This document shows positions 8,540 through 64,000 of a stretch of DNA of 64,000 bases, in pieces. Numbering within the stretch: position 1 is the first letter of the stretch; the number at the start of each line of letters is the position of its first letter. The notes under the pieces were generated by a model that saw only the letters and a list, made by a program, of their open reading frames with translations, searched no databases and was not told the origin of the DNA. Where the stretch lies: positions 1 through 64,000 of the forward strand of contig JAUCBJ010002579.1 in assembly GCA_032718475.1 (NCBI GenBank). Direction: 5' to 3'. Origin of the DNA: Nemertoderma westbladi. Taxonomy: Eukaryota > Animalia > Xenacoelomorpha. Made by a program: the position numbers and the translations under genes.

Positions 8540-8547
8540 AGCGCGAA

Positions 8548-13438: not shown

Positions 13439-13485
13439 ACCCAGAACTAAAAGTTGAGCCGCCAAAAGCAGGGACTGATAAAAAT

Positions 13486-39028: not shown

Positions 39029-39569
39029 TACGTCTGGAGTGGGCGCATGACTATATTATTTTATCTATTTTATTATATTTTATATGTGAACATTATTATG
39101 TACTTTATTATAATCGTTTTTATTCAATTTTATTTAGTAGAAGGTTATTTTAGATTATTTGGTAGATTAGTGCAATATATTAGTGTTTATTACGTAATTA
39201 CATATATATAATATATATTTAGTGTGACGGCGAGAAATAATTTTTTCTCTTTCCTTACTGTCCGTATCATATTATAAATACGAGACTACAGTAAGATGAA
39301 ATGTCCGTACTTATTAAAGTACAATAAAGCCACTACTATATTCAAGTATTGTTGGTAGGCAGAGTATTAGGAATGCAAAGTTCAGATCCTCGTGTCTCGG
39401 CTAAACCAAGCTCTGGGTAGACCTTGGAAACGACTTGCCTCTTCACACTGACATTGCTTCGTGCGATATTGCTCTTCTACCTTATATTAAATAATACATA
39501 TAGTAGCGTGATGTCCCTCTAACAGTAGCGTAAAAACGCAAATAAATCTGTTAAACCTTTTGACCATCT

Positions 39570-39840
39570 GTAATTCTAGTCGATTAAGATATCGCGGCAC
39601 CCACCGATATACTTGAAAGACAAATTCTAGAATCAGTGGTTAACGTCCCCAGACAAGTTCTGGAATAAATTGGTGCCCATCTTAAATATTAATTTAATAT
39701 TTGTTAAAATTTTGTAAAATTCAGATCCTTTAAAATTTCTAGTCGATTAAGATATCGCAGTACTTACCGATACTCTTAAAAGACAATTTTATAGAATTAA
39801 GGATCCTAGGTCCCCAGACATGCTCTGGAATAAAAATTGT
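39570..39840. repeat. Two ~165-bp tandem units in the BEL-A post-pol spacer
   Basis: TTCTAGTCGATTAAGATATCGC...GTCCCCAGACA.G.TCTGGAATAAA occurs at about 39574 and 39737. Confidence 0.75.
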
Positions 39841-40653
39841 GTCAATTTTAACATCAAATAATAAAATTCACGGGAATAAATTTAAATTCATATTTTAAAT
39901 GAATTTCATAAATTGTCATTTTGTGCAATTTATAACATTCCCAAAATTCCATTAATTAATAGATCATGGGAGCGGAGATTCATCCTATTAAGCGTATTAG
40001 AGTGCGAGAATCTCCAACATATAGTCAATAGCCGATAAAATTAATAAAATCATGCATAAAGAGGATATTGACAATTAAAGAATTACTATTAAATAGCATT
40101 CCAGATCTGTATGCATGAGAATTACCCTAATTCTACCGCTAGCTTTCCATAATGTCACCATAGCAACACCCACGCTAGAATTAGAAGCAAGTTAAAAGAA
40201 CAATAGAAAGCTTGTCCCATTGCATAGCATAGAGAATACATAGCACACTGTTAGTATCCAAGGATACACAGTAATAACGTGACATTCTGGAAGGCACTGA
40301 CTAACGGACAAATGGCCTGTATGTGTACAATTGGTGACAGTTGTGTGGAATTTGTGCGTTTATAGGTGAATGTTACTGCTAAAGTATGTTTACAGTAGCT
40401 AGTCGCAATTGTAAAAGTAGCCCAACTCTCCTATAGAAAGAACCTAAAGTGGATCCAAGCCTTTGGGACGGACAGTGGAGTGACTTGTGCCGGTTATCGT
40501 TGTCGTGCTGTTGCTACATGTTGGCGTAAACACCGCGACGACGGTACATCGGCGCTGAGAATCCCACTGTCCGGGGGCAAAGAGAAGTAGGCAGCGACGC
40601 CCGCTCGCCTAGACATAAACTCATTTTGATATTAATAAACTCAGATAGCAGAT

Positions 40654-40842
40654 ATGACGGAGTTGATAGAAGATGATCTTGGTATTAGGGAGCGATATAC
40701 TCTACCTTTACAAGCATTTGTGGATAGCTTGATACGCGGTGAAGCCGATCCAACCATTACGGAGGACGATGGTCGTTATATCGAACCGCCGATGTCCCAA
40801 GAGCAACTTAAGTTTAAGTTACAAATCAGTTTTAACAGTTAA
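40654..40842 (+). pseudogene. Truncated N-terminus of a BEL-A accessory ORF3
   Basis: EDDGRYIEP resembles EDDLRYVEP in the N-terminus of the BEL-B accessory ORF (44481-44918,-). It occupies the same position downstream of pol and of a homologous spacer. Confidence 0.55.
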
Positions 40843-41220
40843 ATAGTTTAACAAATCAACTTAACTTAGTTTGTTAAGTCATTTCCAGTAGGACTAAATA
40901 AGTCAAACGACCTTCACACAAACATTAGAGTTTGATATATTTACAAATAGAGGAGTTCGGTAAAATAATCGGTGTAAGTAGTAGGTAGTGGAAGTATTGG
41001 GTCATATTATCTTCCAAATATAAAAAATACATAAATTTGACTAATACATCAAGTTTCACTCTAGAATGAGAAATACATATTGTTCGTTATTTACAAATGT
41101 GACAGTTTTATAATGTACTTAATGGTTGACGAACGAGTAACAGTAATTTTATAAAAGGTCAACAAGCTAACGGGTAGGAATCTTATATCATCGCTTTCTC
41201 TTGGGATGCTTAGGGGTGTT

Positions 41221-44200
41221 TCAGATAAATAGCCATTTTCTCTTCCTTGCAGGCGTTTGGGGTGCAGGTAACGCCACGTCATCGCTCGAAACTGTCTCGT
41301 TGGGTCTGGGATGAATGTCTACCGTGTCTGGCGCTGGTGAGGTAGGATGGTTGGTATATGTCCCAGTGGAGGTACTGGGCAAGGATAGGAACTCAACGGG
41401 TCTCATTGCGTCCGAGTCGACAGCCAGTCGATGGATCTCCATTCCAGGAGGAGCAGCTAAGCATTTCTGGATAGCAGCTTGCACTGGTCTGGAGGGGACA
41501 GTTTGGGTACAAAGCCGCCTGGTGGTTGCTTGTCAAGGGACTGGTCTTTCACATTGAGCGTGTTCGTTAAAAAACACGACGCAGTGGAAGCAACTCGGGA
41601 TGTTCTTCCAGGAACTGTGGACCATAAGCTGGGGAGTCTCTAATAAACTTTATTATGTCATATGACGCTATGCGCTCGGGATGTATATCGCGAAGGAAGC
41701 GTCGGGCGACACGAGTGTTTGTACAGGAGGCCACTCAGTTGAGGAGCTCATAACTTGGTAACCAAGCACGCCGATTATCTGTTGCACAGGTAAAGGGGGC
41801 AACTGCTTATACACCATGGTGAGCTTTCGCCGTGGCGTATTGGGACGCAGTAATCGCGTTAAGATCTATGCATCCTTCCCATGATCGAATATACCTGGTG
41901 ACATTTGTTTCGTCTTCAATCTCTATGTCAGAGCCAAAGGTGCAGCTTGGACTACTGTGTCCCTTGAGTTGACAACGCTCGCACTGGGTGGCGAAGATGA
42001 AACAGGAAAATAAGATATGATCATCGTTAACACGGCAATAGGGATAATGAAGTTTGATGCGATTATCAGTAAAGCGCTCACAAAGAACTCCAGGTTGAGT
42101 GGGAGCCTTGTGTGTGCGAAAACCGCAGTGAGCAACGGATGTATTTATATAACAACGCATAGCGGAAACCTCGAACCATGAGCCGCCCGGTCCCGCGATA
42201 CCAATCAATCAAAGCGGACTCATTGTCAGGAGTGAGCACGACAGGGGCGGCTACTGAGGTCGCTTCTAGTTGGATTGGTTCATCCGCTTGGTTGGGGACG
42301 TCTATAATTTCAGTTTGTATTTGTCCAATCATGAAGCCAGGTTTAATAAAGGGTCTCTCGATTACTGATTGATAGAGATTGGAAAGACATACGTCTCGGA
42401 ATATAGCGAAGCCACTGCTGGCTAGCCCATCCACTGCGGAGCGGCGGATCAATGTTGCCTGTCTGTCAATGTTGGCGAAGGGAGTTAGGAAACGCCAAAA
42501 ACATTCAAAGTTCAGGAATTTACCGAGTTCGTCGAGTTTGGCGAGTTGGGTTCCCAACAACAATTGGTGCGCTCTTAATGTGCAGCTACAGACATCCGCA
42601 AGCCATCCAGATAATGCTTGGTTCTCAAATATGAGGTATATCGTGAATGAAGGGCGCAAGGGAATGCTCATAAAGGGAAAGCCGTATACAGCGCCAGGGG
42701 CGGTGAGCAGTCCTTGAAAGTAATAAGGCGAATATGAATCACCATAAACTTGGGAATATGTCTCGCGATCGGTTTCTTTAAAGTTCCATCCAAACTCTTG
42801 AAACGCAATATGTCCAGAGGACGTATGGTCAACTCTGCTATACGTATCATACGTCGATACATACACCGAAAGAAGCTGCAGGATTGCGCCCATGGAAGGA
42901 TGACTTGGGTGTCGACAAAGGGGTATGGTATGCCATAGACTATAGGAAAATCGTCGGTTAAATCCGGATATATGGCCGAATCTGAGTTTATAAACCGATT
43001 CTTCCAGGAGAATATCCCATACGGGTTGCAGCAATAATGTTGCATCTATGCCCATGGCCGGGTGATGGTTCGTGTCATTGACATAAGCCTCCGCTGTAAC
43101 GAACTGTTGATGTCCCGCACGACATTAGTAGGCTGTCAAGGCTGGGAAAACGCTGTTTGTGCCGCGACAAGTATGCATGAAAACATGCGTGGCACCTACT
43201 ACTACTAGGATCGGCATGCTGCATTGCAGCTGCATTTTTAAGAATGCCGTGCCGGCTTGTCAACAAAATTGCACCACCACAACTCCCTATCAGCCATGAC
43301 ATTTGCTAGATCATCCGCATCTTTAAGGCCAGTGTCCTTTAAGATGCGTCTCAAGAAAGTCATGGCTGTCCACCATGCTTATTCACTCCATGAGGCTGCC
43401 AAAGTACAATATTATGCACTGGCTGGTCCTCACGGCGAAAGCAATGTCCTGCAAAGCGGAGGCGATTTTGTTCTAGTGTCAAGCTTGGGGGAACCAATGA
43501 GACACCTCCAATGTTATATAGTGTCTGGTTGGAGATGTGTGCATTGTACTTGACACAATGAACCCGGCGTAGCATTCTTGTGAATGTGCCATCCAGAGAT
43601 TTGGTGTCCTCAGTAGTTAGAGCCCAGCATGGACTCCCGTAGAGGAGTACTGGAACTACTGCTGCTCTAAATAATCGGACCTTAAGTTTCCGATTAATTC
43701 TCGGTGACTTCCAAATCCTGGAAAGCCAATTCAAGGCTGCCCATGCCTTTCCCTTACGTATTCGAAGGTCCTCACCTGACTTCCGGATCCATGATCCCAG
43801 GTACACAGAAGTCGTCCACATGCTCAAGCATACCATCCTTTGAGCTTATGCTCATCCGATCAGAGACTTGCTGAGGACTTTCAAAGTTAACTGTCAGAAT
43901 TTTGGTCTTTCTGGAGTTAATAAAAAGACCAACACTAGAAGCAGCATGTTCTAATGAGCTGAGGAGCCGTTGGGCTCCCTCTAATGATTCTGAGAGTACT
44001 CCTAAGTCATCAGCAAAGTCTAGATCAGTTAGGTACTTGGCAGGATTTCCTCGACTTCTGGAGCCAGTAGGTGGAGTTATCATCACCCCATCATCATTAT
44101 AATGATCTAAGGACATGCGTAGAACATAGTCAACCACAATAATGAACAAGAATGGTGCAAGTGTGTCTCCTTGGAGGACGCCCCATAACACTCCAAATGG

Positions 44201-44918
44201 TTCTGTGTCACCGTCAACAGTAGATACAAATGTTGTCGAACCATCGTATACTGATCTAATTGCTGCAATAATTTCATCAGGAATCCCATATAATGAAAGT
44301 ATGCTGAACATACGTGAGCGAGAGACTGAATCAAAGGCCTTGAAGAAGTCAACAAAGATAACAGCCAGATGCCTGTCTTTCTTTTTTGATAACTCTTCAA
44401 TTATCCTTCTAAGTGCCAAAATGGGCTCCATGGTCCCACGACCTTTACGGAACCCATTTTGATTTCCACGGAGCAGTCTCTCAATGGGATCCCTGCTGCG
44501 TGGCTCCAGTGAGGCCGTGGATATGAATCAACCGAGTTGAACCAAGCTCATGATCCAGCACTGAGCCTTCGTTATCGTAGATCATAAAGCCGTAACTGTG
44601 AATAGCATTGGCAGTATGTAACCATTCAACATTGGCCACTTTGGTGGTCAGTTCTACGATTTCCATAACGCATCCAACGAACCGGGTTGGTTCTCTACGC
44701 GCTATCCTTATAGATTTATAACTAGGCATTTCACTTGTGTTCGCATTTGGTTCGACATATCTCAAATCATCTTCAATGAAATGAAGGCAACATCCAAGTT
44801 CCAGTGAACGAGGCGATGGTAAACCATAAATGTTTCTCATACTCCGGTTATATTCCTCTGAGAGTCGTTGTCGCTGCGAATCGAGATTATCTATTGAGTC
44901 GTCATTAGAAGTATCCAT
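41221..44918 (-). pseudogene. Decayed accessory ORF3 of BEL-B (possible exonuclease-like region, zinc knuckles, basic tail), split by an RTE insertion
   Basis: Segments 44481-44918, 43075-43250, 42078-43055, 41807-42208 and 41221-41484. HCGFRTH..C, YC..DH..C and CERCQLKGHSSPSC parallel CDYCGRQTH..C, CLYC..SH..C and CSKCNFRGHYGRQC of 49318-50601. Several stops and frameshifts. Confidence 0.65.
43250..44482 (-). mobile_element. 5'-truncated RTE-clade LINE fragment (RT and C-terminal region); ends approximate
   Basis: NQNGFRKGR, FVDFFKAFDSV, GVLQGDTLAPFLF, LDFADD, YLGS, KVRLFRAAVVPVLLYG, RLRFAGHCFR. One frameshift near 43810. Confidence 0.9.
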
Positions 44919-46538
44919 AATTATTATAAATAATGGGCAAATATATTAATAATTCAACAGAAGTAAACCAATGAGTTTTTATAGGGCCGGCAATGTCAAG
45001 CCGCCCGTCCCTATCCCCAGGCACGGACCCAAGCTGCCCCTGGCTGCGTTAGCGCCGCTATGCCTACTCCCTATCCAACAGATGTGGAAGAACGGGTGGA
45101 AGACAAGCGGCTAACACGCAGGGGAAGCTTGAGACCAGTCTCTCCAAGGGCTGTCCGTCGGGGGTTGTATTGACTGTTATATTGCGACTGAACTTAGTCT
45201 GTAATAGGGTTTCAGTTCGCTACAGTAAACACACAGAGAATAGCTGTTATTTGTACTATCACGCAAACTAACACACCCAATGCCACATCACGCACAAATA
45301 TCCATTACAAATTCTACTATTTCCTGAATGTTAATATTTTAAATTTCCATGGATACATATTAAATAAATTTAAAGGTATTAATTTTAGGAAAAATATACG
45401 ATAAAGCTCTAGAAATTCAATAAAAGGGTTGCGTGAGTGACACACCAGCGTCCCAATATTTTAAATTAGCTATTAATTTATCAAGGATCAACATTCGGTA
45501 AATATAGCGGTAGAATAGGGTATCTCTCATTCACACAGATCTGGGCCTACTGTGATATTATTACATCTTTGTTGGTTGTATTATTTAATTTATTTACTTG
45601 ATTGTGCTTAAGTGGTGTTTGTCTGTATAGTATCGGTGTTTATACTATTGTCGTATTATTAATGTCGCAATTAAAGGGTTGGTTGGTGGTATTAAACCAT
45701 TAATGAATAATATAGATATAAATTTATGCGAACCGCGACCGTTCCCGTAATGCTTATTATTACAGTGACTTGAACGGATTTGTATGAATGTGATATTGTG
45801 TTAACAATATCAAGCTGAGTTGGTTCTTGAAGTTTCAAGCCAACTAATAATTGACATCTCTTACTGTACTCTGGCGATTGACAAGAAGCGGAAGTAGTAA
45901 TTAAGACTCTGCATAGAAGTATTATTGGGCCGTCATAATACAGCAAGACCAAGGTTTATTATTGTCATGCGCCATGTTTAATAATGACTTATCATGACTA
46001 GTGTAGTTTATTATAATTTATTTGTTACTCCCTTATGTACTAGGGTTATACAAGAAGTGGCGGGCCGTTTCCAGAATTTACCCAGAGTTTGGTTTAACCG
46101 AAATAAAGGATATGGATTCCGCATTCAATTGTATTGTCACTGTCATTATACAATTATTAAGGGTTTCGGTTGGTCGCGCGCCATGTTCAAAAAATGACTT
46201 ATTGCAACATGTTGTCAAGAATTGAGCTCAGGTTTCATGCGTCATGTGTATAACGACTTATCATAAAACATCCCACAATTCTTAATAATATTTTAGAATG
46301 TTCTAGAACAGAGATCAAGTTTCATGCACCGGGTATAAAACAATTTATCATGAAACATCCCATAGTCCTATTGTTATTTGGGACGTAAGCAATGTAAGAA
46401 TAAATTACGGTAGCCTGTCAAGCTAAATATATGGCATATTTTTAAAAACGTATGGGGTTAGTGGTAAACGACATAACATAACCCGTTCCCACGTTTGAGT
46501 ATGATATGCAGCGCACTCAAACGTTCCAAAGGAGTTAA

Positions 46539-47722
46539 CTAGTCCAATAAAACAGAAGTCAAGTCTGTTGGCTTGACTTCCTGCTTGGTGTAGTTGCCAG
46601 ATTGTTCGCATGCCATTTCTAACAGGCAGAGACGGTCTATGGGGCGGTTGAGTCTCTGCGGGACAAAGTTTAGTTTGCCATTTTCCCTCAACACTATGAG
46701 ATCTACTGATCTTACCGGGCCATCCGTGCTGACGTGTGTTTCTACTATCATTCTCCTTCCACATATGTGGAACGAGGTCTTGGCCCGCAATATAACTGGG
46801 CTGCTGAACCCCAGGGGGTCGAAATATGTGCTAAGTATGCTTAGGCAAATACATTTGGTTCGGGTATCGCCCTTTCTCAACTTCACTTTAAATACCATAG
46901 TATCGCTTTCTGTTAGCTAACGAAGACCTAATGTCTTAGTCTCCGGTAGGTCGTTCTGAACTGCCGAAGAATTTATTAAAAGGTCCGTTAGATATGAGCT
47001 TTGATCGTTCTGGTGTAATGTATTCTCAGCATGAATACCACTCACATCTGAGGCACGTTTCAGTAATTTTACACCCTGCGACGCTGTTTGTGAGTTGACT
47101 TTCTTATTTGTGAGGGTGAGATGGTCTTGAATTAAGGCCATTGTTGCTCCAAGTCATCATTTCTTTTTGATAAAGAATCAATGATTTCTTGGGAGTCGTC
47201 GTCGTTGCTCTGGGGTCGGGGTTGCCTGATATTTTGTGCATAATGGTCAACGTTATGTAGGCTGGGATCTAACGGGGGTGCAAAAACCTCTGAAGGTGAA
47301 AGAGGGTAACCTTGAAGAGATGCTTTACCTGGGATGTCTTGTGCAAACCTAACTCCATTCATGGGGTAGACTTCCCTTTGCCCGTCAGGGGGGGGGGGGG
47401 GGGGGGGGGGGCTGCAGTATTCAATATTATTGAATACTATTTTGTTTCGTAAAGCTAGATCAGCTTCCACACATTCGTTTTCCAGCTGTTTGGCTTCCAA
47501 CTGTAACTTTGTAGTTTCCTTAACAGCTTTCAGCTTTCGCTCTGTTGCTTCTTTAGCTGCTTCTAACTTTCTCTTGGCTGCTTTTTTAGCTGCTTCTAAC
47601 TGCAGCTCAGATATTTTCTTAGCTGCTTCCAACTGTATTTCAGCAGCGCGCTTGTTGGCCTTATTATGCAGCTGGCTTGCGTTTAACTGCAATTCCATTT
47701 CTAAGATTTCCTCATCAGCCAC
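46539..47722 (-). pseudogene. BEL/Pao element BEL-B: gag N-terminus and internally deleted pol remnants
   Basis: DLPETKTLGL..RTKCICLSILSTYFDPLGF is joined directly to IVETHVSTDGPVRSVDL..LNRPIDRLCLLE. Both blocks are close to BEL-A (DLPETKTLGL..RTKRICLSILSTYFDPLGF; LNRPVGRLCLLE). 47132-47722 is a coiled-coil segment with an AAK(K/E) repeat. Confidence 0.85.
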
Positions 47723-48051
47723 ATGCTCCTCTATCTATGCCCGCACATACCATATCAGCACTTTTCGGAATTGATACAATTACACAGAATAGATCACCCT
47801 TCAAAGAGTTTGGTATAACCATGAAACCATAAACTATGCTTTTTTGTTTCGTTGAATTCATTATTAGTAATCGAAAGTAAGATTAGAAGCAAAATTTTCA
47901 TTTTTTTATCAATTGATAGTAAAAGAGCACCAAAAGTGCAAGTAACACACGAACCACACGAACCTCTATACCTTTACAAGCCTCAGATCTTAAAGGTTAG
48001 GCCTACTATTACACGGAAAACATTCGATCATATATATACACTATACAGTTC

Positions 48052-48627
48052 TGTGACGGGATCCACCGAGGATCCCGGTTTATCCGGTTTCTTAACTACG
48101 CGTCCCCGCCGTGTGCGTGATAAGAGTTCTGGTTTTATTAACTCTGGCTATTGTTGGTCCATAGAATATAAATATAAAGCACAAGCACAAGCACAGTTGA
48201 AATAGAATAACGTGAGTACCGGTATTGTACTAATGAGATAGGCTGATAGCACTGGACGGAGACGGTGATAAGAGTCTCGGTACTACCCTAACTAACTGAC
48301 TTACTAAAGAGTGAATGAATGATACAGTGAAATGATAATATATTGCACCGGTTGGCCGCATTACACTACTCAGCCGATGCCTTCCCCCATTGGCTAATAA
48401 CTCACTTGTCACCCTCCCATCTCCCTGGGAGTACTTCCCCCCCGCTGCTGTCTCCCTCTCCCTCCCGGAGGTGTAACCTCTGACCCCCACTGTGTGTGTT
48501 CCCTTGGGGCCTATTGTCCCCGCTTATTGGGGTGACACGAGGTTGATTGGTAACCAACCTCGTGCTCCCAATATTGCTTAAAACCAACTCTGTGTGGGCC
48601 TGGTTAGCGGAATTGAATACACTAACA
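48052..48627 (-). repeat. BEL-C 3' LTR (576 bp)
   Basis: Direct repeat of 61104-61674, with about 17 substitutions and 2 indels counted by eye (~97% identity). AATAAA on the minus strand at 48134-48139. Confidence 0.96.
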
Positions 48628-48640
48628 CTCCCCCCATGCT
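48628..48640 (-). promoter_or_regulatory. Polypurine tract of BEL-C
   Basis: The minus strand reads ..ATGGGGGGAG immediately before the TGTTAG start of the 3' LTR. Confidence 0.85.
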
Positions 48641-49317
48641 ATCTTCCCGGTGAGAAGATAGCATTCACCTCTAGTGCGCTACAATTCCGCTGGATCTCGA
48701 CCTAGCATCGAGTGTGGGGTGGAACTATTTTTCTCGGAGCCGTCTTTCCAGACCGCCCCCTATGGGTATGATATCGCTACCCTGTTTACCTGGCATCCCG
48801 TGGCGGGCCGATCGTGCGCTCCTCTCACACGACTTTTGTTTCCCCAACACTTTCACCACTAACTCTACTCTGTTCTCACCCTGACTCTCCTCTACTTCTC
48901 CTCACTTCCGCTCTAACTCTCGGACTTCCCTGTCCCTCACTCAGCCTCTTATTCCTCCCCCCCACACTTGAATTGCACCCGCACTCTCTCCGCACTACAA
49001 CTCAACCCCTATCTCTCCCACTCACTCCCGACGAGTTTCACCCCCCTCCTGTGCCGTCGCACTCAAGAAGTGTGATGTCGTCCAGTGTCTCGTCCGTGAT
49101 AGTATTATAGTCTATTGGTCCCCAGTCCCAGTAGCTAATTGAGAAAAAGGTTGTACGACTATAGTACTTACTTTGATTGTATTTACTTTCTAAACTAATG
49201 ATGATTACTACGTACGTACATACTAATTGCACTTTTCAATTATTTAAATTACTTGAATTCGTACTTAGGAGTTCGCACGTCTCGCGTGGTGCCTTCCAGG
49301 CATATCACATCGATGCC

Positions 49318-51979
49318 TTAGTTCGTTCCACCTGCCTTTGGGAACCACCTCAACTCTTTCCCTCTATCGTCCTCCTCCCTTGGTCGTTTCCTGGTCACTG
49401 CCGCTCCTTTGATCTTGTCTGCTTTCAGGCTCCTGACCCTCGCCGTCACCTCTTTACTAATCCCGGTCGTCGACTCCTTGGGCGCTGGTGTTATTAGCTC
49501 CCGGTATCGCTTCGCGGGTGGCCCCTCCGAGTGGCCCTGTTGTCTCCCCCTGGTGGCGTCCCATAGGATCACTTTCATCGCCCGCGGCACATGCTCCGCC
49601 AAGAAATCCCTGAACTCTCCTCTGTTCTGTGGCGTCCACCTGTCCAAATACCTCTGCGTATTTATCACTCCGGCATACGACGCCGCCGTCGCCACTTCCT
49701 GGTAGGTAAACGGAAGCCTCCGTTTGATAATCTCCATGTGGGCCTCCTGATTGATGTTAAAGAAGCCCCACCGGAACTCCTGGGCCTTCATGCGTTGCCG
49801 AGTCATGGCTCCGACGTCGGCCCACTCCTCGAAGACCCTAAACTTCTCTTCGTCGTCCATCCAGTCGCACTGGCGTCCGTAGTGTCCCCGAAAGTTGCAC
49901 TTCGAGCACCGGTTGTGCAACCGTGGACACGCCCCCATCCTGTGGCTCGACTCGCGGCAGTAGAGACAACTAGTCCCTTTCTGGAACCGGTACAAACAGC
50001 TTCTTTCCTGATGGGTCTGTCTCCCACAGTAGTCACAGCTGAGCACCAATGTCTCCCGCCCCACATCGTCTTTCGTCCCAAGCGATCTCCGCGGTCTGTG
50101 GAGTCGCTGGTAAGCGAACTTCCAGACGTTAGCGTCCCTGTCTACGTCGATCTCCTCGCCCCTCCCGGGCATCGTCTCCCCGAATACTACCTGTGGTGCT
50201 GTCCCCGGTTGCTCGCCCAACCTGATAGTGCTCCCCGCGAAATCCATCACCGGCTCCTCGTGCACCCAGGCCCGCTTGCCGGGTCTATCCCAGAAGGCCC
50301 TCGCCCCACTGGCCGTCACCACCCTCCCGCCAACCCAGTCCGTGTCCGAGTGGCCGATCCTCCCGATGGGTGGCATCTCTCCGAACTCATCGTCGTCCTC
50401 GTCCTCCTCTGGCAGCGGCTCCAACCCCGGTACCCCGGTGGACCCACTGTGGCCCTTCCCGCCTTGGCTCTCGCCCGTAACTTTCCATCCATCTAGCTCC
50501 CCTAGCCTCCTAAGCGGCTGATCGCCATCGGCTCCCGCTGGTATGGGCGTCGTCTGCAATCCCGACATCGACTGTTTCGGTGATCCCACCGTCCATCCCA
50601 ATTCTCGCCCTAGAGACTCCCCCGAACTCCGTGATGAGGTCCAACGAAGTTCGTCTAAGGCCGCGTTCCTCGAAGCCGTAGCTCTGTGCCCTAGCTTCCT
50701 CCTACCTTTCCTCTGCTTCTCTCCTCTCCTGTCTAGCGATTTCTTCCAATCGCTTCACTTCTCGTCTATCCGTCTCTAGCTGCTCCCACCTCTGATACGG
50801 CGTATCTACCTCCCCGTCTACCAGATGTCGGCTGTTGTAGTACACCGACTCGCCCTTCAGCCCCGGGTGGTCTACCAGACCCCCGAAAGCCGTCTTAAAG
50901 GCTCTTCTGTAGCTTAGGGGTGATCCCGATAATAGGAATGCCGTTGGTTCCCTCTCGATAACCACGGTCATGAATAGGTTAAGCAAACCCATCATTATCC
51001 AGTCCTCCTGTAGGATATATCGCTTCTGATATACCTTTATCGCTCCTCTCCGGAATTGATACACCTCTTGTCTCCCTGGCCTCGCTCCCCACTTCAGCGA
51101 GTTCGCCAAGTCCGCTACATACTCCCCTCTGAACTTACTCCAGTCCATCGGTTTGTGACACATGAGCCCCATTAGCTGGCCCATTGCCACCGCCCCGCAA
51201 TGTCCTGTGTTCTCCACTAGTCCCAACCCGTCTGAGGCTGTCATAGCCATATAGACTGTCTGCATATCCAGAAGGTTGGGGGTGTCCGGACCGATGATTC
51301 TCTCCGCGTCATCGCGAATCGCCGATCCCACTTTCGTCATCGACTTCTCTCTCACTAGGGTTTGCACCGCCTTCGGCAACCGGTTCAACTTTGGCCCGTC
51401 CTTCTTTCCATACGTTCCTAGATCGAATAGGAATATATCCCCATTTGGCGCGGCCAAATGTAGGAGTATGGTTCTGGCCGACCCCGCCGATCCTCTCCTC
51501 GAACCCTCCTCGTCTTCCACGGTCCCCTCATCGTCTAGGACCATGTATCCTTCTCTGCTGACGGACTCTACGAACCTCTTCCAATCTTTCATCGGTGGCT
51601 CTCTCGCATACTTCGGAATCCCGAACTTCGCCTCGTCTCCTTTCACCATGTAGTGGAAATGCTCGAAGATCGCATTGTCCAGCGACGGCGTCCCATAGGT
51701 CCCGACCAGCCGCTGTTCGTGCACCTCTCTGAAATGGTCTTGTAGCACTCGCGCTGCGTGGCCTCTCTCTAACCGCTCGTAGTATCCCCTCGTCTTTTCT
51801 TCCGGATGCCTCTTGGTGAAATCCACCAGTATCTCCTTTCCTCCTGACTCCGCCTTTCTCTTCCTGATCAGTTTCCCCGCCATTCCGAACTCTCTCACTC
51901 GCTCACCTGTAAGGTGGTGCCTTGCCAAGGCGCAGTACAGATGAGTGATAGGTTTAAGATGGTCTGTACAGTTCGACAA
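49318..51979 (-). CDS. BEL-C ORF3: DEDDy 3'-5' exonuclease (WRN/EXD/Mut-7-like), acidic linker and three zinc knuckles; one frameshift at ~50704
   Basis: ExoI YMVLDDEG, then LLHLAAPNGDIFLFDL, ExoII LPKAVQTLVREKSMTKVGSAIRDDAERI, LLDMQTVY, KPMDWS and ExoIII-like YQKRYILQED. Removing one base at 50704 fuses 50702-51979 with 49318-50601 (EER-RRKLGH) into about 886 aa containing CX2CX4HX4C x2 and CX2CX3GHX4C. Confidence 0.78.
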
Positions 51980-52349
51980 TGGCCTATTTTCTACTTAATT
52001 CTGAGTTATAGCCTAAATTTTACTACTTAGTTTCTGAAACTGTCAAATTGTGCCCTAAATTACAATTTTGTCCGTTACTTTAATTATGTTCCAGAATTTA
52101 CTTTCTAGTGTTACCATAATTTGTTAATTTTCTAATTTCTTATTTATTTTAATTTTGATTTAATTCAATCCTACTACTGTGCTACTACTTACTATTGCCA
52201 ATGGATTACTCTATTTCATAATCCACATTCTGGCCTACTCTGTGGGCTTGTGCAGTACAACAGTATGCGTCGCGCGGCCTACACGATTTGTCCAGCTGTA
52301 CTCATATGCCCCCCTCTCGCTACTCACTACTAATCCTCACCACTACTAT

Positions 52350-52700
52350 CTGGTACTATGTACCCTCTTACTAACTTCTAACTAACTTCTACCAACCGGT
52401 ACTACGTACCCTCTTACTAACCTCTAACTCCACTTAACTAACTAACGGTACTACGTACCCTCTTACTAACCTCTAACTCCACTAACTAACTAACGGTACT
52501 ACGTAACCTCTTACTAACTCTAACTCCACTAACTAACTAAGCAGTACTACGTACCCTCTTACTAACTCTAACTCTCTCCAACTAACTAACCGGTACTACG
52601 TACCCTCTTACTAACTCTAACTCTCTCCAACTAACTAACCAGTACTACATACCCTCTTACTAACTCTAACTCTCTGCCTAACTCTTACTAACTTCCATCT
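52350..52700. repeat. ~50-bp tandem repeat in the BEL-C pol-ORF3 spacer
   Basis: About seven copies of GGTACTACGTACCCTCTTACTAACTCTAACTCC..ACTAACTAAC. Confidence 0.88.
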
Positions 52701-52818
52701 ACCTACTTACTCTTTCTTTATTTATTATTTTTTTTATATATTTTATGTGTGGGAAGGGCGTCTCGCCCTCAATCCCACCCCCCTCAGTCCAAAACTTGGA
52801 CGACTAAACTCTACTCGT

Positions 52819-55800
52819 CTAAGGTGCTCCCTCTAGTAGGCAGCACTTGCCTACAGCCCTTCTGTAGGTCTTTCTATCTTTCGCTCCTATTTTTCCACCT
52901 ATCCGCACTTCTACTGATTGGACTCCTCCATCCTCGTCGGAGTAAGTGCCCACAACTCTCGCCAACCGCCATTGGTTGTTGATGATGGTATCGTCCGTGA
53001 CGATCACCAGGTCACCCTCCTTTAGCTCTCTGTTCGTGTTTCTTCACTTACTTCTCCTATGGAGCATGGGTAGATATTCCTCGACCCACCTCCTCCAGTA
53101 CTCTGCGCTTATCGCCTTAGCGACTTTCCAACTCTGTCGGGAGTGTATATCGTCTGGGTCTACACCCCGCATGTCGATGGTCGCTGGCCTCTCCATTAGA
53201 AAGTGACTAGGCGTCAGCACGTCTAATGACTCCGGGTCATCATTTTCTGGATATAGCGGTCTGCTATTAATGATACCCTCGCACTTTGCTAGTACCGTCC
53301 TCAGCATGTCCTCTGTTACCATGTGGGTGTTCATCAATTTCGTCATCAGACGCTTGGAACTACCCACTAGTCTCTCGACGCATCCTAGAGTATACGGAGC
53401 ATACGGCGTCCTCCTCTCCCACTTCACCTGTCGTATTCTCATGGCTGCCCTGACTTCTTCCCCTTCCAGGATATCCAAGGCATCTGCCATCTCGTTCTCT
53501 GCCCCCACAAAGTTGGTTCCGCTGTCAGAATATATTACTGCAATCGTCCCACCTTTGCTGTCTCAGAACCTTTCTAGAGCATTAATGAATGCTGATGCGG
53601 TTGCATCTTGGGCGAGTTCTATCCCTACCGCCCGTGTGTTGTTACATACGAAGATGATGCCGTAGCGCTTCTCCGTGTGCCGCATCACCTTAATCTTTAT
53701 CGGCCCGAACATATCCACACCGCAATGCGTAAATGGTGGGTCGTGCTGTCTTACTCTACTGGCCGGTAGTGGCGCCATTTCCTGTATGGCCCACTCCTTC
53801 TTAGCTCGTCGGCAGGTCTGGCACTGCCCCACTACTGCCTTTACCTTCTTTCTCAACTGTTTGACCCAAAAGGTCCTTCGTATCTCTGTGAGGGTTCGGT
53901 TGGTGCCCCCGTGCAATATCGACTTATGGGAGTCCCAGATGATCTGGTGGACTATCGGTGATCCATTAGGGATGATGATGGGCTTTGGTGGGATGAAAAT
54001 ACTGTTGTTGTTCAACACCCTAGAGTTCATTACTAGGATCCCGTCATCATTGAGTTGTGGTGACAGTGCGATCAGCTCGCTGTCCCGTCGGAGATGCTGT
54101 TGTTTACCAACGCGTTCCACCTCGTCGCCGTAATTCTTCCTCTGTTCGTAGCGGATGATGGCTTTGGCTGCCCCCTCCAGATCGACGGTTATTTTACCCC
54201 TTGTATCTCTACCGATTCCCCTAAGGAAGTCCCCGAAGGCTCTCCAGTACGCCACTAACTTCTTGGTCTTATACCAACTAGAGCTGTAGCTAAGGAGTTT
54301 GTCCATTGGGTTATTGCACAGTTCTTCCGGATTCGGTTGCACATCCCTTATCTCCCTCACCATCTGGCTGTATATCTCCTCACCTTCTGAATCTACTTCC
54401 TCCTCCTCTAACGCTACTTGTTCTGCGCCCAGGTCCACCTTTCTCATCGGCGGCCAGGCTGTCTTATCGTTCAGAAATTGTGGCCCATGCTGCCACAATA
54501 CTTCCTTCCTCAAGAAAGTGTGGCGTGCCACACCCCTTGATAACAAGTCCACTGGGTTCTCGTCCATTGGGCAGTAGTGCCACCTTCCTAACTCTGTGGT
54601 TGCCCTTATTTCGTCCACCCTATTTGCGATGAATATAGGGTATCTCGTCCATTCGTTATGTAGCCAACCGAGCACTACCATGGAATCCGTCCAGTAGTGT
54701 GTTTCCACTATGTTGGGAATAGCGTCCACTAAGTAGGCTGTGGCCCTAACTCCTAATCTCGCAGCTGTCAACTCGAGTTTCGGAACTGATGCTGAATCTG
54801 GTGGCGTCGACTTCGCTTTGCTGAATGCGAGTCTGGGCTTGTGAGCCCCCTCTCGTTGTACTAAGTAGAGTGCCACTCCGTATGCCTCTAATGACGCATC
54901 GGAGAACATGTGCAGATCCAGATTCGTCATGTCCCCATCCGGAAAATATACACGTGGTATGCTGTATGTTCCCATCTGCTCTAAACTCTCTGTCCACTTG
55001 TTCCATTGCTTACTAATCTCTTCCGGGACCTCTGTGTCCCACTCGTCCTTTAATTTGTATACTCTCTTGAGTATCTGTTTCCCCGTGACTAGTAATGGGG
55101 ATGCTAGGCCTAGGGGATCGTATATCCTCGCTATATACGACACATAGCCCCTCTTTGTGTGGATGCCTGCGCCCTCCTGACTCAACTGGTATTTTAGCTC
55201 GTCTGTCTCTCGGTCCCACACGATTCCTAGTGCCTTCTGCTGGGACTCCACTCTCTTGTTCGCCATGTCCTGTTCCTTGGCTGTCGTGGGATTATCCATG
55301 GTCGACTCTGGCCTCCTGTCCTCTATGGCTTTCATGAACTCTTGCGAGCTGGATTGGAACTTGGTTAGGTTGAACCCGGATCCTTTTAGGATGTCGCAAA
55401 CCTCGCGCCCCGTGTCCAGTAGTTCCTTAACCGTATTTCCAGACTCCATCCCGTCGTCTACATAGAAACCTCGTCGAATCATATTGACGGCTTTGGCGCT
55501 GAATTTATCTTCCTTTCCCTCTACTGTGTCTCTTACGGCCACAGTCGTTGTAAACGAAGACGACTTGGCTCCCATATTCTGTACTATCATCTTATACATT
55601 GGTATGGTCGACGGTTCCTCGCCGCCATCATACCATAGGAAGCGCTGGCTGTCGCTATCCTCTTCCGTTACACGGACTTGGTTGAACATGCCTTCGATGT
55701 CACAGGTGAAAGCGTGTTTACCATTCCTGAATCTGAGTAGGACCTCGATCCCTGAGTTGTAGATGTTGGGACCCTCCAGCAGATAATCGTTTAGGCATTT

Positions 55801-58800
55801 TCCGTTGGTCTTGGCTGATGCATCAACTACCATCCGCAGTTTACCTTTCTTCGGGTCTAGAGCCACATGGAGTGGCAGGTAATAGGTACTGTCCGTGTTT
55901 GGTTCGTTGACCGGTAATTCCACGGCCCATCCTTTCTCAACATACTTTCTAATTGTCTTGTGAATGTACTCATTCTTCTTGGGGCTCTGTTTCAGCGTTT
56001 GCTTCAACTTATGAAGCCTCGTGAGTACCATCCCTTTATTGTCAGGCAGCGGTAGCTTCAGTAGCTTCCATACCATCCCTATGGTATACCGCCCCTCATC
56101 GCATGTCATCTATTCCTTTACACTTTGTAAAGCCTGCTTGTCTTCTACCGAGGTTCCGACCCCGGTCTCCTTTAATCCCTCAAAATCCTGCCTGAGCAGT
56201 CTCTTGAGCTGCTCCTCCGCTCGCTCATCTCCCATTTCTTGCATAGTTCCCACGAACATGCATCCTGATGTCTCCGACATCCTAAATGGTATCTTACTCC
56301 TGATTGGGCCACTCAGCGTCCACCCGAATGGTGTTAATATCGCCACCGGGTCACACTGCCTGTCTTCGCCAAAGACCGTTCGCATTCTCTCGTGGGCCGT
56401 CGGGCAGTCCATTCCTACTATGATGGATACCTTCCTGACGTCCACCTCTGGGATTGAGAAATCAATACTGTCAATCTGTATTGTTCAACCTCGATGTTGG
56501 TTGGCCGCCTGGCGTTAATATTTATCGAATCTATCACCTGGATGGGGTCGATGGTCGCACCATAGTCGCATCCCGGTGCTATCGCTGCTATCGTCTTTGC
56601 TGGAGATGGTTGTTACCACCATTCTACTTGGCCTCGTTCTCAATCCTATCTCTTCGGCCACCCAATCCTCAACTAAGGTGAATGCTGCACAACTGTCGAC
56701 CAGCATGAGCGTAGTTACTGATCGATTGCCTTCACCGATTATCCTTACTGGTACTACCCCTAATAGTACCGTTCCTCTCTTCCTCGCCACTACGGTGCTC
56801 GTTGCCATTGTCTGTCCTTTACTCTGACCGAACTTAATTGGCGTTTCTTTGCATTGGTTGGCTCTATGTCCACTCATCACACATCGCGAGCAGATTTCAT
56901 TTTTTCTCGCGTATTCTACCTGATCTTCCCTGGGTAGCGCTTGCCAGTACCTGGAGTTCATGGGTCGGCCTACTGGGCGTGCTGGGGTTGTGTTTATTTG
57001 TGTTGTTATTTTCCCCTGTCCGCTCCATGATGTGGTCTTACCCCCAGCTACTTGTGGACTGGTAGTCCCCTGCGTTGCTGCGTACGGCAGTGACTGCCTG
57101 AGCTTTGGCAATTCGTTCGACGCGTTGTGCTCTGGTTTCGGCCTGTGGTAATCGGTCTTTGGTCCCTTTCCCAGGCTATCCTCGCTATAGACTGGGTCCG
57201 TTATAAGTTCAGCTTCATAGTTTAAGAAGCTTGACATCTCTTCTAAACCCGGTTTCACACCCTTCTTATCTCGAGTGGAGAAAGCGATTTTCCTCCACTT
57301 ATTGCGCAGCAAAATCGGTAGTGCCTGCGCTATCGTAGTGATGTTGTTGGACGCGTTGAGTTCGTATGGCGCGTCCAGCATCTTTAGCACGATTAGCGCC
57401 TTCTCGACTTTGTTAGCGAATGTCTTTATGCTAACAGGGTTATCCTGTAGGCCACCCGATGTATTACCTCTCAGGGTCTGCCGGATGATCTTGGCCGGGT
57501 GCCCGTATTCCCTGTCTAACGCCCGCCATGCCGTCATGAAGCCACCCTCGATGCCCTGGTATTGCCTCACGATGTCATATGCTGGGCCCCCTGTATATAC
57601 TTGCAGATACTTTAGGCACTCCGCCTGCGTCAAATTCTTTGTTAATATTTCGTTACTATACATACGCCGAAACTGTAGGTATTCTTCCGGCCTACTTCCA
57701 TCGAATTTGAATGGTTCCACGGGTGGTAACTCGATTCTGGTCTTTAGTGCATCGATTAACGTGGCCATCCCCATCGCCTGCGCTTCCAATGGGTTCGATG
57801 GGTGCTGTATAGGTTCTCCCATTGGGTGCGGTCCGTTCGTCCTGTCTACCGCTTTCCTCTGACTTGGATATATCATAGGGGGTAGCAGCCCCCTCCATAT
57901 TTCTGTGTCGCACGATCTATTCTCGTCCAAGGGGTTCGATGTTCTTACTCCTATTGGGGTATAATGTTGATATTGTGATGGGGGAATGTCACCCTGTCCC
58001 CCCCCCCCCCCCCCACCGGTATGTTTGGTACTGGGGTTGATGTTAATATATTGGGGCCCATACACCTATCCGTAATAAGTCTCCCCTCCCCTGGGTATAT
58101 GTTATGTCCTTGCATGCTGTAGTCATACTGTTGTGCTGGTACCGGTATAGGCCTATCCACTTCTGGCCTACCCGCCGGTATATACTCCGCTACTTCCGGG
58201 TTTAATCCCGTTGTTTGCGCTATCCTATCGCCTACATTATCTCTCCCAGCATGGCTTATGGTATGTGCAGTAAGGCCTACAGTATGTCCTGCAGTCTGTA
58301 TGTGTCGCTCGGGATCAAAGTTTATCCTTCTCGAATAATCCTCCCCGCGGCTACCGTATTCTCGATCGGTAGGTATATCCCGTCGGGAAGTTTCTCTTCG
58401 ACCCCCTCTACTGCTCTCGTCCTCGTGCCGGTACATCCTGTACCCCTCTCTCTGCTCGCAATACGCCTCGTCAGGTCGCGTTTCTCCGGGACGACGGCAA
58501 TCTCCCGAAGTTCGACCCCACTGACTCTCCGTCTCCACCTCTACTACCAACGGCTCACTATCCGTCCTCGCTCTCCTGTCGTTCGCGGCGACACTTCTTC
58601 TACTCTCTTCCTTTCTTCTCTCTGTAGTGCAGTATTCCCGCTCGTGAGATCTCTCGTCGACCTCCCGGTTAAACTCCACTGTTCTTCTTCCCTCTTCTGA
58701 TTGGGCTCGACGCCTCGTCGCTCGCCCTCTCGCGACTTCAACCTGTCTCTCTCTGCTCGATCGCATGCCGCTGGGGATACTCGTAATCCTCCTACTACTC

Positions 58801-61078
58801 TCCGTCGCCGGGTGCTGCGGTTCACCTAATTCGCCCCGCGCATTATCCGCCGACGCTTGTGGGACACTCTTTGCCCCCCCCCCCCCCCCCGCTCGCCGCT
58901 AATCTCTCGTTGTGGGGCTCCTATAGCCCCCCCCCCACTCGCCACATCTAACTTCACTATCTCTTAGTTCACTACTACACCCCTCTCTAGTCGACACATT
59001 AACCCTACTGCGGGTGGGTCTATTCACCCCCGCCTCTCCCTCTGCTACTGTGTGGCCTACCAGGCCCTCTACTTCCTGCCTACAAACTACGCGGCCTACC
59101 AGGCCCTCACTGGGTTGACTCAACCCCGCCACTTCCTGCCTACTAACTGCGTGGCCTACCAAGCCCTCGTCGGGTTGACTCAACCCTGCCACTTCCTGCC
59201 TACTAACTACGTGGCCTACCAGGCCCTCGTCCGTCGGGCTGTCTGCACCCGCCACGTTTATATTAATAGCACCATTACTAGTATCGCCCGTTAAATCAAT
59301 TAAATCCTCCAAATCAATTAAATTATTTTGCGCGCCTAAATTAGAAACGGAATTATTTTGTTCATTCGAAATAAGATTATTTGAATTATTTTGCGTATTT
59401 ATATTATTCGAATTATTTTGTAAATTTACATTATTTGAATTATTTAGTAAATTTAAATTTAAATTACTACTACTAGGTAAAGTATTTCCTGCAATGAAAG
59501 TTTGGTTAGAATTATCCAATACGGTACTATTAATATTAACGTTATCTACTGTATTATTATTACCCCCCCTGCCCGTACGGTCACACCAGTCTTGGGTCTG
59601 TCATGCGGTCCCTATAAGTGGGGTATTAATAAACGTTTCCACAGCCCTTGGCTCCTCGTAAATACTTGAGCCAGTCTCGCTCTCTGACAATCCCATCTGC
59701 GCCAGTTCCAGTCGGCGCTTCTGTTTGGCTTGATATTGAATAAGCCCCCTTAGGCAGGCATGTAAATCATCCCGCACACGCTTCCCCGCCGCCTCTCTTT
59801 CCAGATCCTCCCGTGCACTCTGGTCGGCTAATTCCACCTCTCTCGCAGCTCTCTCCAATCGTCTCGCCTCGCGCTCTTTTAGCTCGCTCTGCTCTCTCGC
59901 CTCACGCTCCTCACTTCTATTCTGCTCTCTCACCTCGTGCTCTTTTCGCTCGCTCTGCTCTCTCGCCTCACGCTCCTCACGTCTATTCTGCTCTCTCGCC
60001 TCGCGCTCTTTTCGCTCGCTATGGTCTCTTGCCTCACGCTCTTCTTGCTCCTTCCTTTCTATCCTCCCTATTTCCCCGCACTCCTTAAAGCTTCTCGCGG
60101 CCTTCTCAGCCTCTCTCTGTTCACTCTAACCAGTTCTTTCTCATTCTCTAGTAACGCACTCCCCTCCTCTAACTGTCTCTCTACTTCTCTCTGGTCTAGC
60201 ACCGCCAGATCGAGTTGGCACGCCAGATTTATTGCCGTCACCCGTCTTTCCTTTGCGGAGGATGTAGCAGACTTATCGGTTGTGACGGACTCTCTCCACC
60301 CTCCCGTCCTACTGACTTTCCCCCACCTCCCGGAACTTACTCCGACCGACGAGACCGAATCCTCGGGGTTAACCTCGGATTCGCCCTCCTCAGGTCTCCT
60401 CCAGCCCACTAACTTTACTCCCCGGGCATCGACTAAGTATGGCCCTACGTACACTACGCTAGGTTTCATACCCCTACATTCCCATAGTTCAAACAGTTCG
60501 CTGGCAACCCCTTTCGCTCTCTCGTCGGCTAGTTCTCCCTGCCCAAAACGCATTAGGTAATCAAAATGTCTGTTCGACTCACCTAGTCGTTTTCTCAACT
60601 TCACCTCGTCTATCTTCGCCCCTCCTTTGGCTTCTCTTAAATGCTTTCAGGTCGCGGCGTAGGCTCGTCGGAGCCAGTCACTGACCCCGACGTCCTCGTC
60701 GCCGACATCTCCTTTATCCCTCCGGGTCCGGCGTTGTACCGGCGGCCCCACCGTCGCCGTTCTGGTGGGCCGTCCGTCGCCCTCGGCCTGTGGCTGGCCG
60801 GCGACATCGGCACGTCGACCGCCACTGTGTGTCGACTCGTCTCTCTCCTCTCCTAACTCGTCTCTCCCTCCTCTCGGCTCGTCTTCTGGTTGTAGAAGGC
60901 CCCCATCATCTTTGGTTGCCGGGTCGCCCGTTATCGATGGGTCCAGCATCGTGGGTCTATACCGTCGTGTCGCGGCCTCGCGGATCGTTAGGTCGCCGTC
61001 CGGGGTCCGCGGCGGTGTCATTTCTCCTTCTCGACTCATCTTTACTTTACTTTGTCGGTTAGAGTCTGGTCTTGTCAC
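52819..61078 (-). pseudogene. BEL-C gag-pol with several stops and frameshifts and a very long low-complexity N-terminal region
   Basis: Gag FDGS..Y..F, CLKYLQVYTGG, AW..LDREYG; knuckle CSRCVMSGHRANQC; protease LVDSCA; RT FYVDD; RNase H FSDAS; integrase HKSILHGG..CQTC, GVDMFGP, GCVERLV; C-terminal WRLARVV..DEDGGVQSV. Fragments span 60647-61078 to 52819-53007. Confidence 0.93.
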
Positions 61079-61103
61079 TAGGGTAGCTGCTCGTTCTTAT
61101 CAC

Positions 61104-61674
61104 TGTGACAGGATCCACCAAGGATCCCGGTTTATCCGGTTTCTTAACTACGTGTCCCCGCCGTGTGTGTGAAAAGAGTTCTGGTGTTATTAACTCTGGC
61201 TATTGTTGGTCCATAGAATATAAATATAAAGCACAAGCACAGTTGAAATAGAATAACGTGAGTACCGGTATTGTACGAATGAGATAGGCTGATAGCACTG
61301 GACGGAGACGGTGATAAGAGTCTCGGTACTACCCTAACTAACTGACTTACTAAAGAGTGAATGAATGATACAGTGAAATGGTGATATATTGCACCAGTTG
61401 GCCGCATTACACTACTCAGTCTATGCCTTCCCCCCATTGGCTAATAACTCACTTTTCACCCTCCCATCTCCCTGGGAGTACTTCCCCCCCGCTGCTGTCT
61501 CTCTCTCTCTCCCGGAGGTGTAACCTCTGACCCCCGCTGTGTGTGTTCCCTTGGGGCCTATTGTCCCCGCTTATTGGGGTGACACGAGGTTGATTGGTAA
61601 CCAACCTCGTGCTCCCAATATTGCTTAAAACCAACTCTGTGTGGGCCTGGTTAGCGGAATTGAATACGCTAACA
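61104..61674 (-). repeat. BEL-C 5' LTR (571 bp)
   Basis: Direct repeat of 48052-48627 with TG...CA ends, followed by the TSD AGTTC. Confidence 0.96.
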
Positions 61675-62089
61675 AGTTCAAATGGGAACAGCCAATAAGA
61701 ACACCAGAAAGTGTGACTACCAATAAGAGTCCAGTACTATGATAATCGATGTCGGCGTCGGGCAATGGATAAACAAGGTTAGCGATGGCGTATGGCACAG
61801 ATTTGACATAAAATATTATGCACGTAAATATTGAGTAGCTCTCTGATAAAATATAAGATTTCATTATGAAGTTAGCTAGTTAGTTAGTTAGAAGTTAGTA
61901 GTTAAAAGAAGCAACTATGTAGCTGAGATTTCCTCAAGATCCAGAGTCTATTAGAACCCTTTACCCCGTACTAACTTCAGGTCCAGCAACAAACTTTAGC
62001 TTAGTTTCTATGCCCCAAAAAATTCCTAGACCTAACTGTAGATCCCTTAACAGGTACACAGTTCATTGTTTAGTGTTTACTGTTTATTG

Positions 62090-63518: not shown

Positions 63519-64000
63519 CTAATAGTTGGTAACAGATTTTGCATTAGATGATTAAGTTAATATCAAAATTACCAAAAATATTCCCAAATTACTTTTGAAA
63601 TAAAAAAAACAATAAAAATTAAAAATAACTTTTTAATTTTTGTAATATCGAAATATCGAAAATTATAACAACTCAAAAATTAATTTTGCTGGCGCCCCCT
63701 CTGATTGGCGCCGAGGGGCGAGTAACCCGCTATTATAGCTACGCCTCTGTAGGTAGGCTACAGTACAACTAATGTACTGTACAGTAGGTAGGCATACTGT
63801 ATGTAATACGGCCTCTGCTTACTGTTATATACCCCGTCTACTGTACTGTATTAATACAACGTTTGTTTGTTTGTTTGTTGATGTATACAATATCAATATG
63901 AACATAAAAATTTTGGCGTTGCTCCTAATTGCTCTGAACTGTATTAATAGTTACTGTATTTGCCGCGTATAACCATTATACTGTATAAATTGGAATATAC

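Follow-up and report, generated by a model that had tools for sequence, protein, structure and literature searches.

Introduction

In bdelloid rotifers, the Juno and Vesta elements and the Athena/Terminons carry a third open reading frame (ORF3) of the DEDDy exonuclease type with a DEED motif (Rodriguez et al. 2017, PMC5408684), an account which is repeated in the relevant parts of two reviews (PMC5718144, PMC6431247). A DEDDy domain is also carried by the Dada DNA transposons of Laccaria and Ectocarpus (Kojima and Jurka 2013, PMC3706591), and the cellular RNase D of Trypanosoma brucei (TbRND) combines such a domain with a C-terminal zinc-finger domain; over-expression of TbRND depletes small guide RNAs (PMC7797062). 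Here we describe a predicted DEDDy-like ORF3 in a BEL/Pao long terminal repeat (LTR) retrotransposon, element A, of Nemertoderma westbladi (Xenacoelomorpha). Element A lies on the minus strand of positions 1 to 64,000 of contig JAUCBJ010002579.1 (assembly GCA_032718475.1); this whole stretch of 64,000 nucleotides is referred to as the window. Within the literature searched, a DEDDy-like ORF3 in BEL/Pao is new, while DEDDy ORF3s as cargo of LTR elements are already known from bdelloids. We found no BEL/Pao case in the full-text literature, a search with Repbase, Dfam, subscription journals and supplements outside its scope.

The resistance of animal transposons to PIWI-interacting RNAs (piRNAs) is poorly known, and the rotifer DEDDy ORF3s are without a shown function. 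The case described here carries the DEDDy cargo into a second LTR superfamily, with an added putative RNA-binding module. Beyond the rotifer study, it offers a sign of purifying selection and of probable retention over deeply split lineages.

Element A and the layout of its ORF3

Element A is 13.6 kb long and is bounded by two direct LTRs, both with TG...CA ends: the 5' LTR of 571 bp at 61104-61674 and the 3' LTR of 576 bp at 48052-48627 (minus strand). The target site duplication AGTTC is found on either side, at 61675-61679 and 48047-48051, and the purine tract GGGGGGAG stands directly ahead of the 3' LTR. The LTRs are identical at 553 of 570 aligned bases (3% divergence, Kimura two-parameter distance 0.031). 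Between them, every coding frame is on the minus strand. The gag and protease region (56515-61096) matches DUF1759 (E 1e-9) and Asp_protease_2 in Pfam and is broken by stops and frame changes. It is followed by pol (52819-56484) with reverse transcriptase (RT), RNase H (Pfam Peptidase_A17), integrase and DUF5641. The Pfam matches of pol comprise Peptidase_A17, named 'Pao retrotransposon peptidase' (E 3e-42), a weak RVT_1, Integrase_H2C2, and DUF5641 with an E-value of 1e-4, just under its cut-off. The domain order protease-RT-RNase H-integrase is the one that BEL/Pao requires. Thus, by structure and Pfam signatures element A is a BEL/Pao LTR retrotransposon, as a reading of the letters without database searches (the sequence-only reading) had held. 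Its gag-pol is dead, with at least six in-frame stops, those in pol at 56110, 53563 and 53044, and two frame changes. No alignment of pol to viral contigs was obtained.

The gag of this decayed copy has one recognizable CCHC knuckle (56515-58065), as opposed to three in the gag of a plus-strand BEL element of the window. Three Cys-His motifs in gag are typical of BEL/Pao and do not define it. A tRNA primer site usually starts with TGG, and the sequence following the 5' LTR (61080-61103, minus strand) has no starting TGG at this position. In the features described for the superfamily by de la Chaux and Wagner (2011, PMC3118150), namely LTRs of 0.2-1.2 kb, a Gypsy-like domain order and a Pao-type pol, element A agrees with other members. 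It differs from them in its length, since 4.2-10 kb is usual, and in having an additional nuclease ORF in the place where env is found in a few members; the main text of that paper nowhere uses the word 'nuclease'.

Pol is separated from ORF3 by a non-coding spacer (51995-52818) containing a 49-bp tandem repeat in seven copies (52345-52683) and an AT-rich stretch. ORF3 itself is a sense ORF in the env position inside the LTRs, split over two frames on the minus strand. The first frame (50702-51994) comprises an N-terminal region of about 115 amino acids (aa), counted from the ATG at 51883, and the nuclease domain (approximately 50930-51604). Residue numbers used below are counted from position 51979, which is a TTG codon. 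Starting from the first ATG, ORF3 has approximately 850 aa and not the 886 aa previously proposed for this post-pol ORF. Nor is it interrupted by a single frameshift: the break consists of an in-frame stop (50702-50704) and a frame change shortly downstream. At both sites other copies, as represented by their contigs, have a sequence different from that of the window, so that stop and frame change look like lesions of the element A copy.

The second frame (49318-50754) contains a Gly/Pro-rich acidic linker (EEDEDDDE at 50386-50409), three CX2CX4HX4C zinc knuckles (49867-50037) and a basic tail with the motifs PAKRYR (49501-49518) and RKRPR (49378-49392); an acidic linker, three knuckles and these two basic motifs had been noted in the sequence-only reading. 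An envelope protein was considered for this position and rejected: there is no transmembrane segment, the best 19-residue hydropathy windows of the two frames reach 1.32 and 0.49 on a simple scale, and the N-terminus is charged. In this respect the earlier view of ORF3 as not env-like is retained.

A DEDDy-like nuclease domain predicted in ORF3

The first frame was compared with three reference profiles, of WRN/EXD2 type, RNase D type and Pol I type, built from PF01612 matches in bacterial genomes. The WRN/EXD2-type seed profile of eight sequences, the nearest solved relatives of which are WRN, EXD2 and Mut-7, gave 10.2 bits. The RNase D-type profile gave 1.2 bits (reached by 5 of 2000 shuffled sequences) and the Pol I-type profile -1.6 bits (184 of 2000). 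With 38 bacterial sequences in the WRN/EXD2-type profile the score rose to 13.4 bits (E 2e-6 when calculated for a single sequence), higher than all 2000 shuffles and than the other 83 of the 84 stop-free pieces of the window; as the set was picked with the motif already known, the test is in part post hoc. The core of the match is the ExoII block, and hhalign stretches it to 65 columns (E 2e-4). In the ESM Atlas the whole first frame scored 0.87-0.88, which is a lead only. Residues 110-375 scored 0.94, with 174 features in common with a PF01612 cluster and 24 of 30 hits within the PF01612 set, in a resource whose calibration was not designed for parts of proteins; 34% of the members of the matched cluster carry PF01612, and the top two rows are unnamed fungal clusters.

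In a MAFFT alignment with 27 references, D149 and E151 of the ExoI motif LDDEG (51524-51538) fall on invariant columns and D224 of KVGSAIRDD (51308-51334) on the ExoII column. In the ExoIII region (51002-51055; F309...Q318..Y321...E325-D326), the residues F309, I314, Q318, Y321 and E325 stand on the conserved W, L, Q, Y and D, with a 22-residue insertion ahead of F309. In a block scan none of 1000 shuffles reached the score of ExoII. All motifs that had been listed in the order typical of WRN, EXD2 and Mut-7 are present. The assignment of 'DWS' as the conserved ExoIII tryptophan was rejected on spacing, for DWS begins the 22-residue insertion. With WRN, EXD2, Mut-7/Nibbler and EXD1 (PF01612), ORF3 thus has in common the ExoI D-x-E, the LP...KVG..I.DD block, the W/F-x4-L/I-x3-Q-x2-Y spacing and the best-scoring reference profile. 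Unlike these proteins, it has a Glu at the aligned last acid and insertions after ExoI and before ExoIII, gives no Pfam hit and is borne by a retrotransposon. The catalytic residues given for EXD2 are D108, E110, D171, Y242 and D246 (PMC6648332); by this comparison, the fourth ligand in ORF3 would be the Glu or the next Asp. As E325 occupies the Asp column of ExoIII with D326 beside it, we file the domain as DEDDy-like, of WRN/EXD2 type by sequence, with a variant ExoIII.

Several observations weigh against this assignment. No true relative of ORF3 was found in Pfam, where the expected DNA_pol_A_exo1 match is missing, or in NCBIfam, PHROGs, PDB sequences and three word-indexed protein searches; for the knuckle half, the scope was Pfam, NCBIfam, PHROGs and PDB sequences. 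A phmmer search of 1.84 billion representatives returned two hits, both to TPR-repeat proteins on a short repeat, which were rejected. The first half of ORF3 had no homologue among longer, near and shorter proteins or in metagenome and viral contigs; plasmids and phages gave one chance row each, one of these, H1, lying in an unrelated frame. Further, the hhalign probability for the WRN-type match is just 44%. The fourth acid column holds a Glu, and the ExoIII block, although its site is the best in the protein, is reached by 17 of 1000 shuffles, which is modest. ExoI by itself is not above chance (967 of 1000). Structure prediction from the single sequence failed (predicted local distance difference test, pLDDT, 36), and a Foldseek search with this model was uninformative. 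The alignment-guided model (pLDDT 73.5) has exclusively DEDD folds as top matches (Z up to 12.5, root-mean-square deviation 3.6, 165 residues aligned), with RNase D, Nibbler, WRN, TbRND, EXD1 and Egalitarian, whose exonuclease-homology domain has been confirmed (PMC13186709), within about 1 in Z of each other. These matches are not independent, since the alignment of DEDDy proteins imposed the fold. The guided model therefore indicates that a DEDD fold is compatible with ORF3 and is no proof of it. In sum, the expected DEDD fold is backed by the profile comparison and agrees with the ESM Atlas features, while the single-sequence model is uninformative and the guided one circular.

Copies of ORF3 and their variation

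Five sequencing runs share words with the window, none of them listed as RNA. From four runs (three samples, three studies, the window itself possibly being derived from one of them), contigs were aligned at 80% likeness on 48630-52330. In these runs 8898, 5634, 6032 and 81 contigs, with identities of 80-100%, cover all 30 bins of ORF3 and its flanks. The share of contigs running on into unlike sequence is 0, 1, 1 and 11%, the last value coming from the shallow run. The contigs are too short to join pol with ORF3, and their depth is no measure of copy number. Full coverage of the bins, the spread of identities and the few run-ons show a multi-copy, diversified family in which ORF3 does not look like a separate insertion. 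Two doubts raised with the sequence-only reading, that ORF3 might occur in this copy only or belong to another insertion, are disfavoured by thousands of contigs.

For 50960-51560 in the nuclease domain the four runs supply 1570, 1066, 1047 and 5 contigs, and no indel is listed for them. The following counts refer to the 40 of 131 variant rows listed for this domain. Third codon positions account for 29 of the 40 (P 5e-7), and none of the 40 hits a catalytic codon. The rows were divided into segregating variants and sites where the element A copy differs from nearly all others, by a threshold of our own (0.95 as the share found in run X1). Of the segregating variants 28 of 33 are at third positions (P 1.5e-9), compared to one of the seven copy-specific sites (Fisher P 7e-4). 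This is the pattern of a gene which selection maintains in lineages that are active, and which decays in the element A copy. Over the whole ORF3 the bias is weak, which speaks against extending this view to the entire gene: third positions make up 15 of 34 among the variant rows listed, a count from which six of the 40 listed rows, five in the 3' flank and one at the stop, were left out. The linker accordingly looks less constrained.

We regard it as highly probable that ORF3 is a genuine accessory gene, under selection and folded in the manner of DEDDy proteins. That its nuclease domain is also catalytically active appears reasonably probable.

A likely homologue in the neighbouring element B

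Element A is adjoined by the gag end of element B, a deleted minus-strand BEL element which extends from 47734 to about 41200. It comprises a gag-like piece and an internally deleted pol (46539-47734). The pol remnants are 54-56% identical to the pol of the plus-strand BEL element (gag-pol within 33288-40155; 33288-39028 in the comparison with element B), which belongs to the element B lineage and has no retained ORF3. The two have two post-pol spacer blocks in common (74% and 82%). This gag-pol and element B, of one lineage, face each other in the window (33288-47734). In RT-RNase H the plus-strand lineage is just 35% identical to element A; the RT comparison tree has seven rows, with five of 25 metagenome BEL loci kept, and is without named references and outgroup.

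Downstream of its spacer, element B harbours an ORF3-like gene, also on the minus strand. The 5' part (44484-44918) contains the ExoI-like sequence YDNEG with its D at 44576. The 3' part (41221-43250), in several frames, has a middle that cannot be aligned, a knuckle cluster (41920-42140) and a terminal PARKRK. A fragment of a non-LTR retrotransposon (43190-44530, ends approximate; RVT_1 E 1e-20) is inserted in the gene. The distance from the ATG to ExoI is about 114 residues in element B and 116 in element A. The ExoI-like and knuckle segments ranked first among 76 comparisons and are in the same order as in element A; each has a z of about 7, reached by none of 5000 shuffles, whereas gag controls gave z 1.4-2.1. 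The middle and the post-knuckle part did not rise above shuffles in the comparison with element A (z 0, -0.9 and -0.5) and gave nothing on the WRN-type profile; ExoIII is not clear, and the search for LTRs of element B yielded no pair. By these segments the element B gene is likely a much decayed homologue of ORF3. This likely homology suggests either a great age of ORF3 in this BEL group or a transfer of it from one lineage to another.

ORF3 is not general to BEL/Pao. All 25 metagenome BEL loci lacked an ORF3 match, although just five of them extended by over 1.5 kb past the match to integrase. As an aside, three of these loci (L011, L012, L018) have fragments of a PIF1-like helicase or a DIRS-like RT downstream (named by eye), which are likely nested elements.

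Comparison with transposon-borne DEDDy domains

In the papers searched, the bdelloid elements are the only precedent of this kind, in agreement with the sequence-only reading. As described for Juno and Vesta in the ORF3 account of PMC5408684, the DEDDy ORF3 is a sense third ORF past pol, in the env position and without a transmembrane segment, as in element A. In both cases the acidic motif is altered, to DEED in the rotifers, and activity is putative. The host element is different: the account in PMC5408684 names the Juno, Vesta, TelKA and Mag clades only, and not BEL/Pao. The ORF3 of element A is further set apart, by published description, in its length of about 850 aa, three CCHC knuckles, basic tails, many copies and a selected domain; rotifer ORF3 sequences were returned by none of our searches. 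Dada resembles ORF3 in that a DEDDy domain is carried on a transposon. According to the description in PMC3706591, it differs in that the domain sits within the DDE transposase of a DNA transposon and keeps its four acids.

Possible functions of ORF3

In the reading that we favour, the ORF3 protein would be an RNA-binding 3'-5' trimming enzyme which shields the element from small-RNA silencing by the host. The spacer of about 0.9 kb between pol and ORF3 suggests a subgenomic or spliced message of its own; for the ORF3s covered in PMC5408684, separate units from spliced messages are described as typical. The knuckles would grip single-stranded RNA in the manner of a nucleocapsid, and the nuclease domain would take nucleotides off 3' ends by means of two metals coordinated by D149, E151, D224 and E325 or D326. 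The basic motifs at both ends may bring the protein to the nucleus or the nuclear edge. Its substrates could be RNAs of silencing, either antisense or small, or the precursors of these.

We favour silencing RNAs over the alternatives given below because TbRND is the nearest working design. TbRND (PDB 7c42, PMC7797062) turns up both for the knuckles, weakly (E 0.32 for its CCHC part), and for the fold in the guided model, and its arrangement, in which CCHC zinc fingers come after a DEDDy domain, is a model for how knuckles could feed RNA to a nuclease. It is a cellular protein of guide-RNA turnover, matches the fold at 16-18% identity and differs from ORF3, which has a long acidic linker. We treat the likeness as an analogy and not as homology of the whole protein. 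The shielding role, with its proposed substrate, location and expression, is tentative, and we give it somewhat less than an even chance. It is also at odds with the role of the host enzymes, as trimming by Nibbler/Mut-7 helps silencing and does not block it. In the same direction, Rodriguez et al. report no clear link between DEDDy ORF3s and copy number in their ORF3 account (PMC5408684). The more specific idea that an old BEL/Pao clade, with RTs just 35% identical, encodes a knuckle-guided exonuclease destroying or mis-trimming host piRNAs is unlikely as the data stand. If true, it would be an enzymatic suppressor of small-RNA silencing in an animal retrotransposon and would help to explain the spread of the family in the genome.

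Alternatively, ORF3 could serve replication, entering the particle or the pre-integration complex via its nucleocapsid-like knuckles and trimming the 3' ends of element RNA, primer or cDNA, or proofreading for the RT. The knuckles do resemble retroviral nucleocapsid, though weakly (best E 0.02), and the gag of element A has a single recognizable knuckle, compared to three in the plus-strand BEL. WRN and EXD2 act on DNA (PMC6648332), and end processing was proposed for the Dada domain (Kojima and Jurka, PMC3706591) as was 3'-end processing for the rotifer ORF3s (Rodriguez et al., PMC5408684). On the other hand, ORF3 is separate from the polyprotein, the other BEL loci lack a homologue within the sequence they cover past the integrase, and the element B lineage has three gag knuckles yet likely carries ORF3. 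We consider a replication role somewhat doubtful, although it ranks close behind the shielding proposal.

The variant ExoIII raises the further possibility of a pseudo-nuclease which binds RNA without cutting, as EXD1, Maelstrom and Egalitarian do, and which routes or shields element RNA or decoys a silencing factor. EXD1 and Maelstrom are cited in PMC5408684 as inactive DEDD derivatives still binding RNA; EXD1 and Egalitarian are among the tied fold matches of the guided model; and the Asp-to-Glu exchange, the 22-residue insertion and the unclear ExoIII of element B fit such an adaptor. Against it, D149, E151, D224 and Y321 are kept, no listed variant row falls on a catalytic codon, and the D-x-E of ExoI is retained in the distant element B. 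Such an adaptor seems quite improbable to us. Being short and uninterrupted in the element A copy, the nuclease domain lends itself to a direct test of activity. Finally, a neutral passenger, either a piece of a host gene captured once or a separate insertion now decaying, would suit the broken state of this copy and the mostly neutral within-genome variation which Rodriguez et al. describe for other ORF3 types (PMC5408684), but is very improbable in view of the thousands of distinct contigs from three studies covering all 30 bins with 0 to 1% run-on in the three deep runs, the third-position bias of the nuclease domain, the likely homologue in element B and the database searches, none of which brought up a close protein of host type.

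Other features of the window

Three host genes identified by Pfam occupy one long frame each, with no introns apparent: a COMMD gene (7943-8539, plus strand), a TPGS1-like gene (8479-9279, plus strand) and MMS22L with 1232 codons (17961-21659, minus strand). The COMMD and TPGS1-like frames abut or overlap. A near-complete non-LTR retrotransposon (11615-17047, plus strand) has an ORF1 of 607 aa with a 39-bp charged repeat, followed by an endonuclease-RT frame. A fragment at 1726-2148 (plus strand) matches DDE_Tnp_1_7, a piggyBac-like transposase. Near the 5' LTR of element A, a unit of 22 bp is repeated in tandem about 66 times over 62080-63519.

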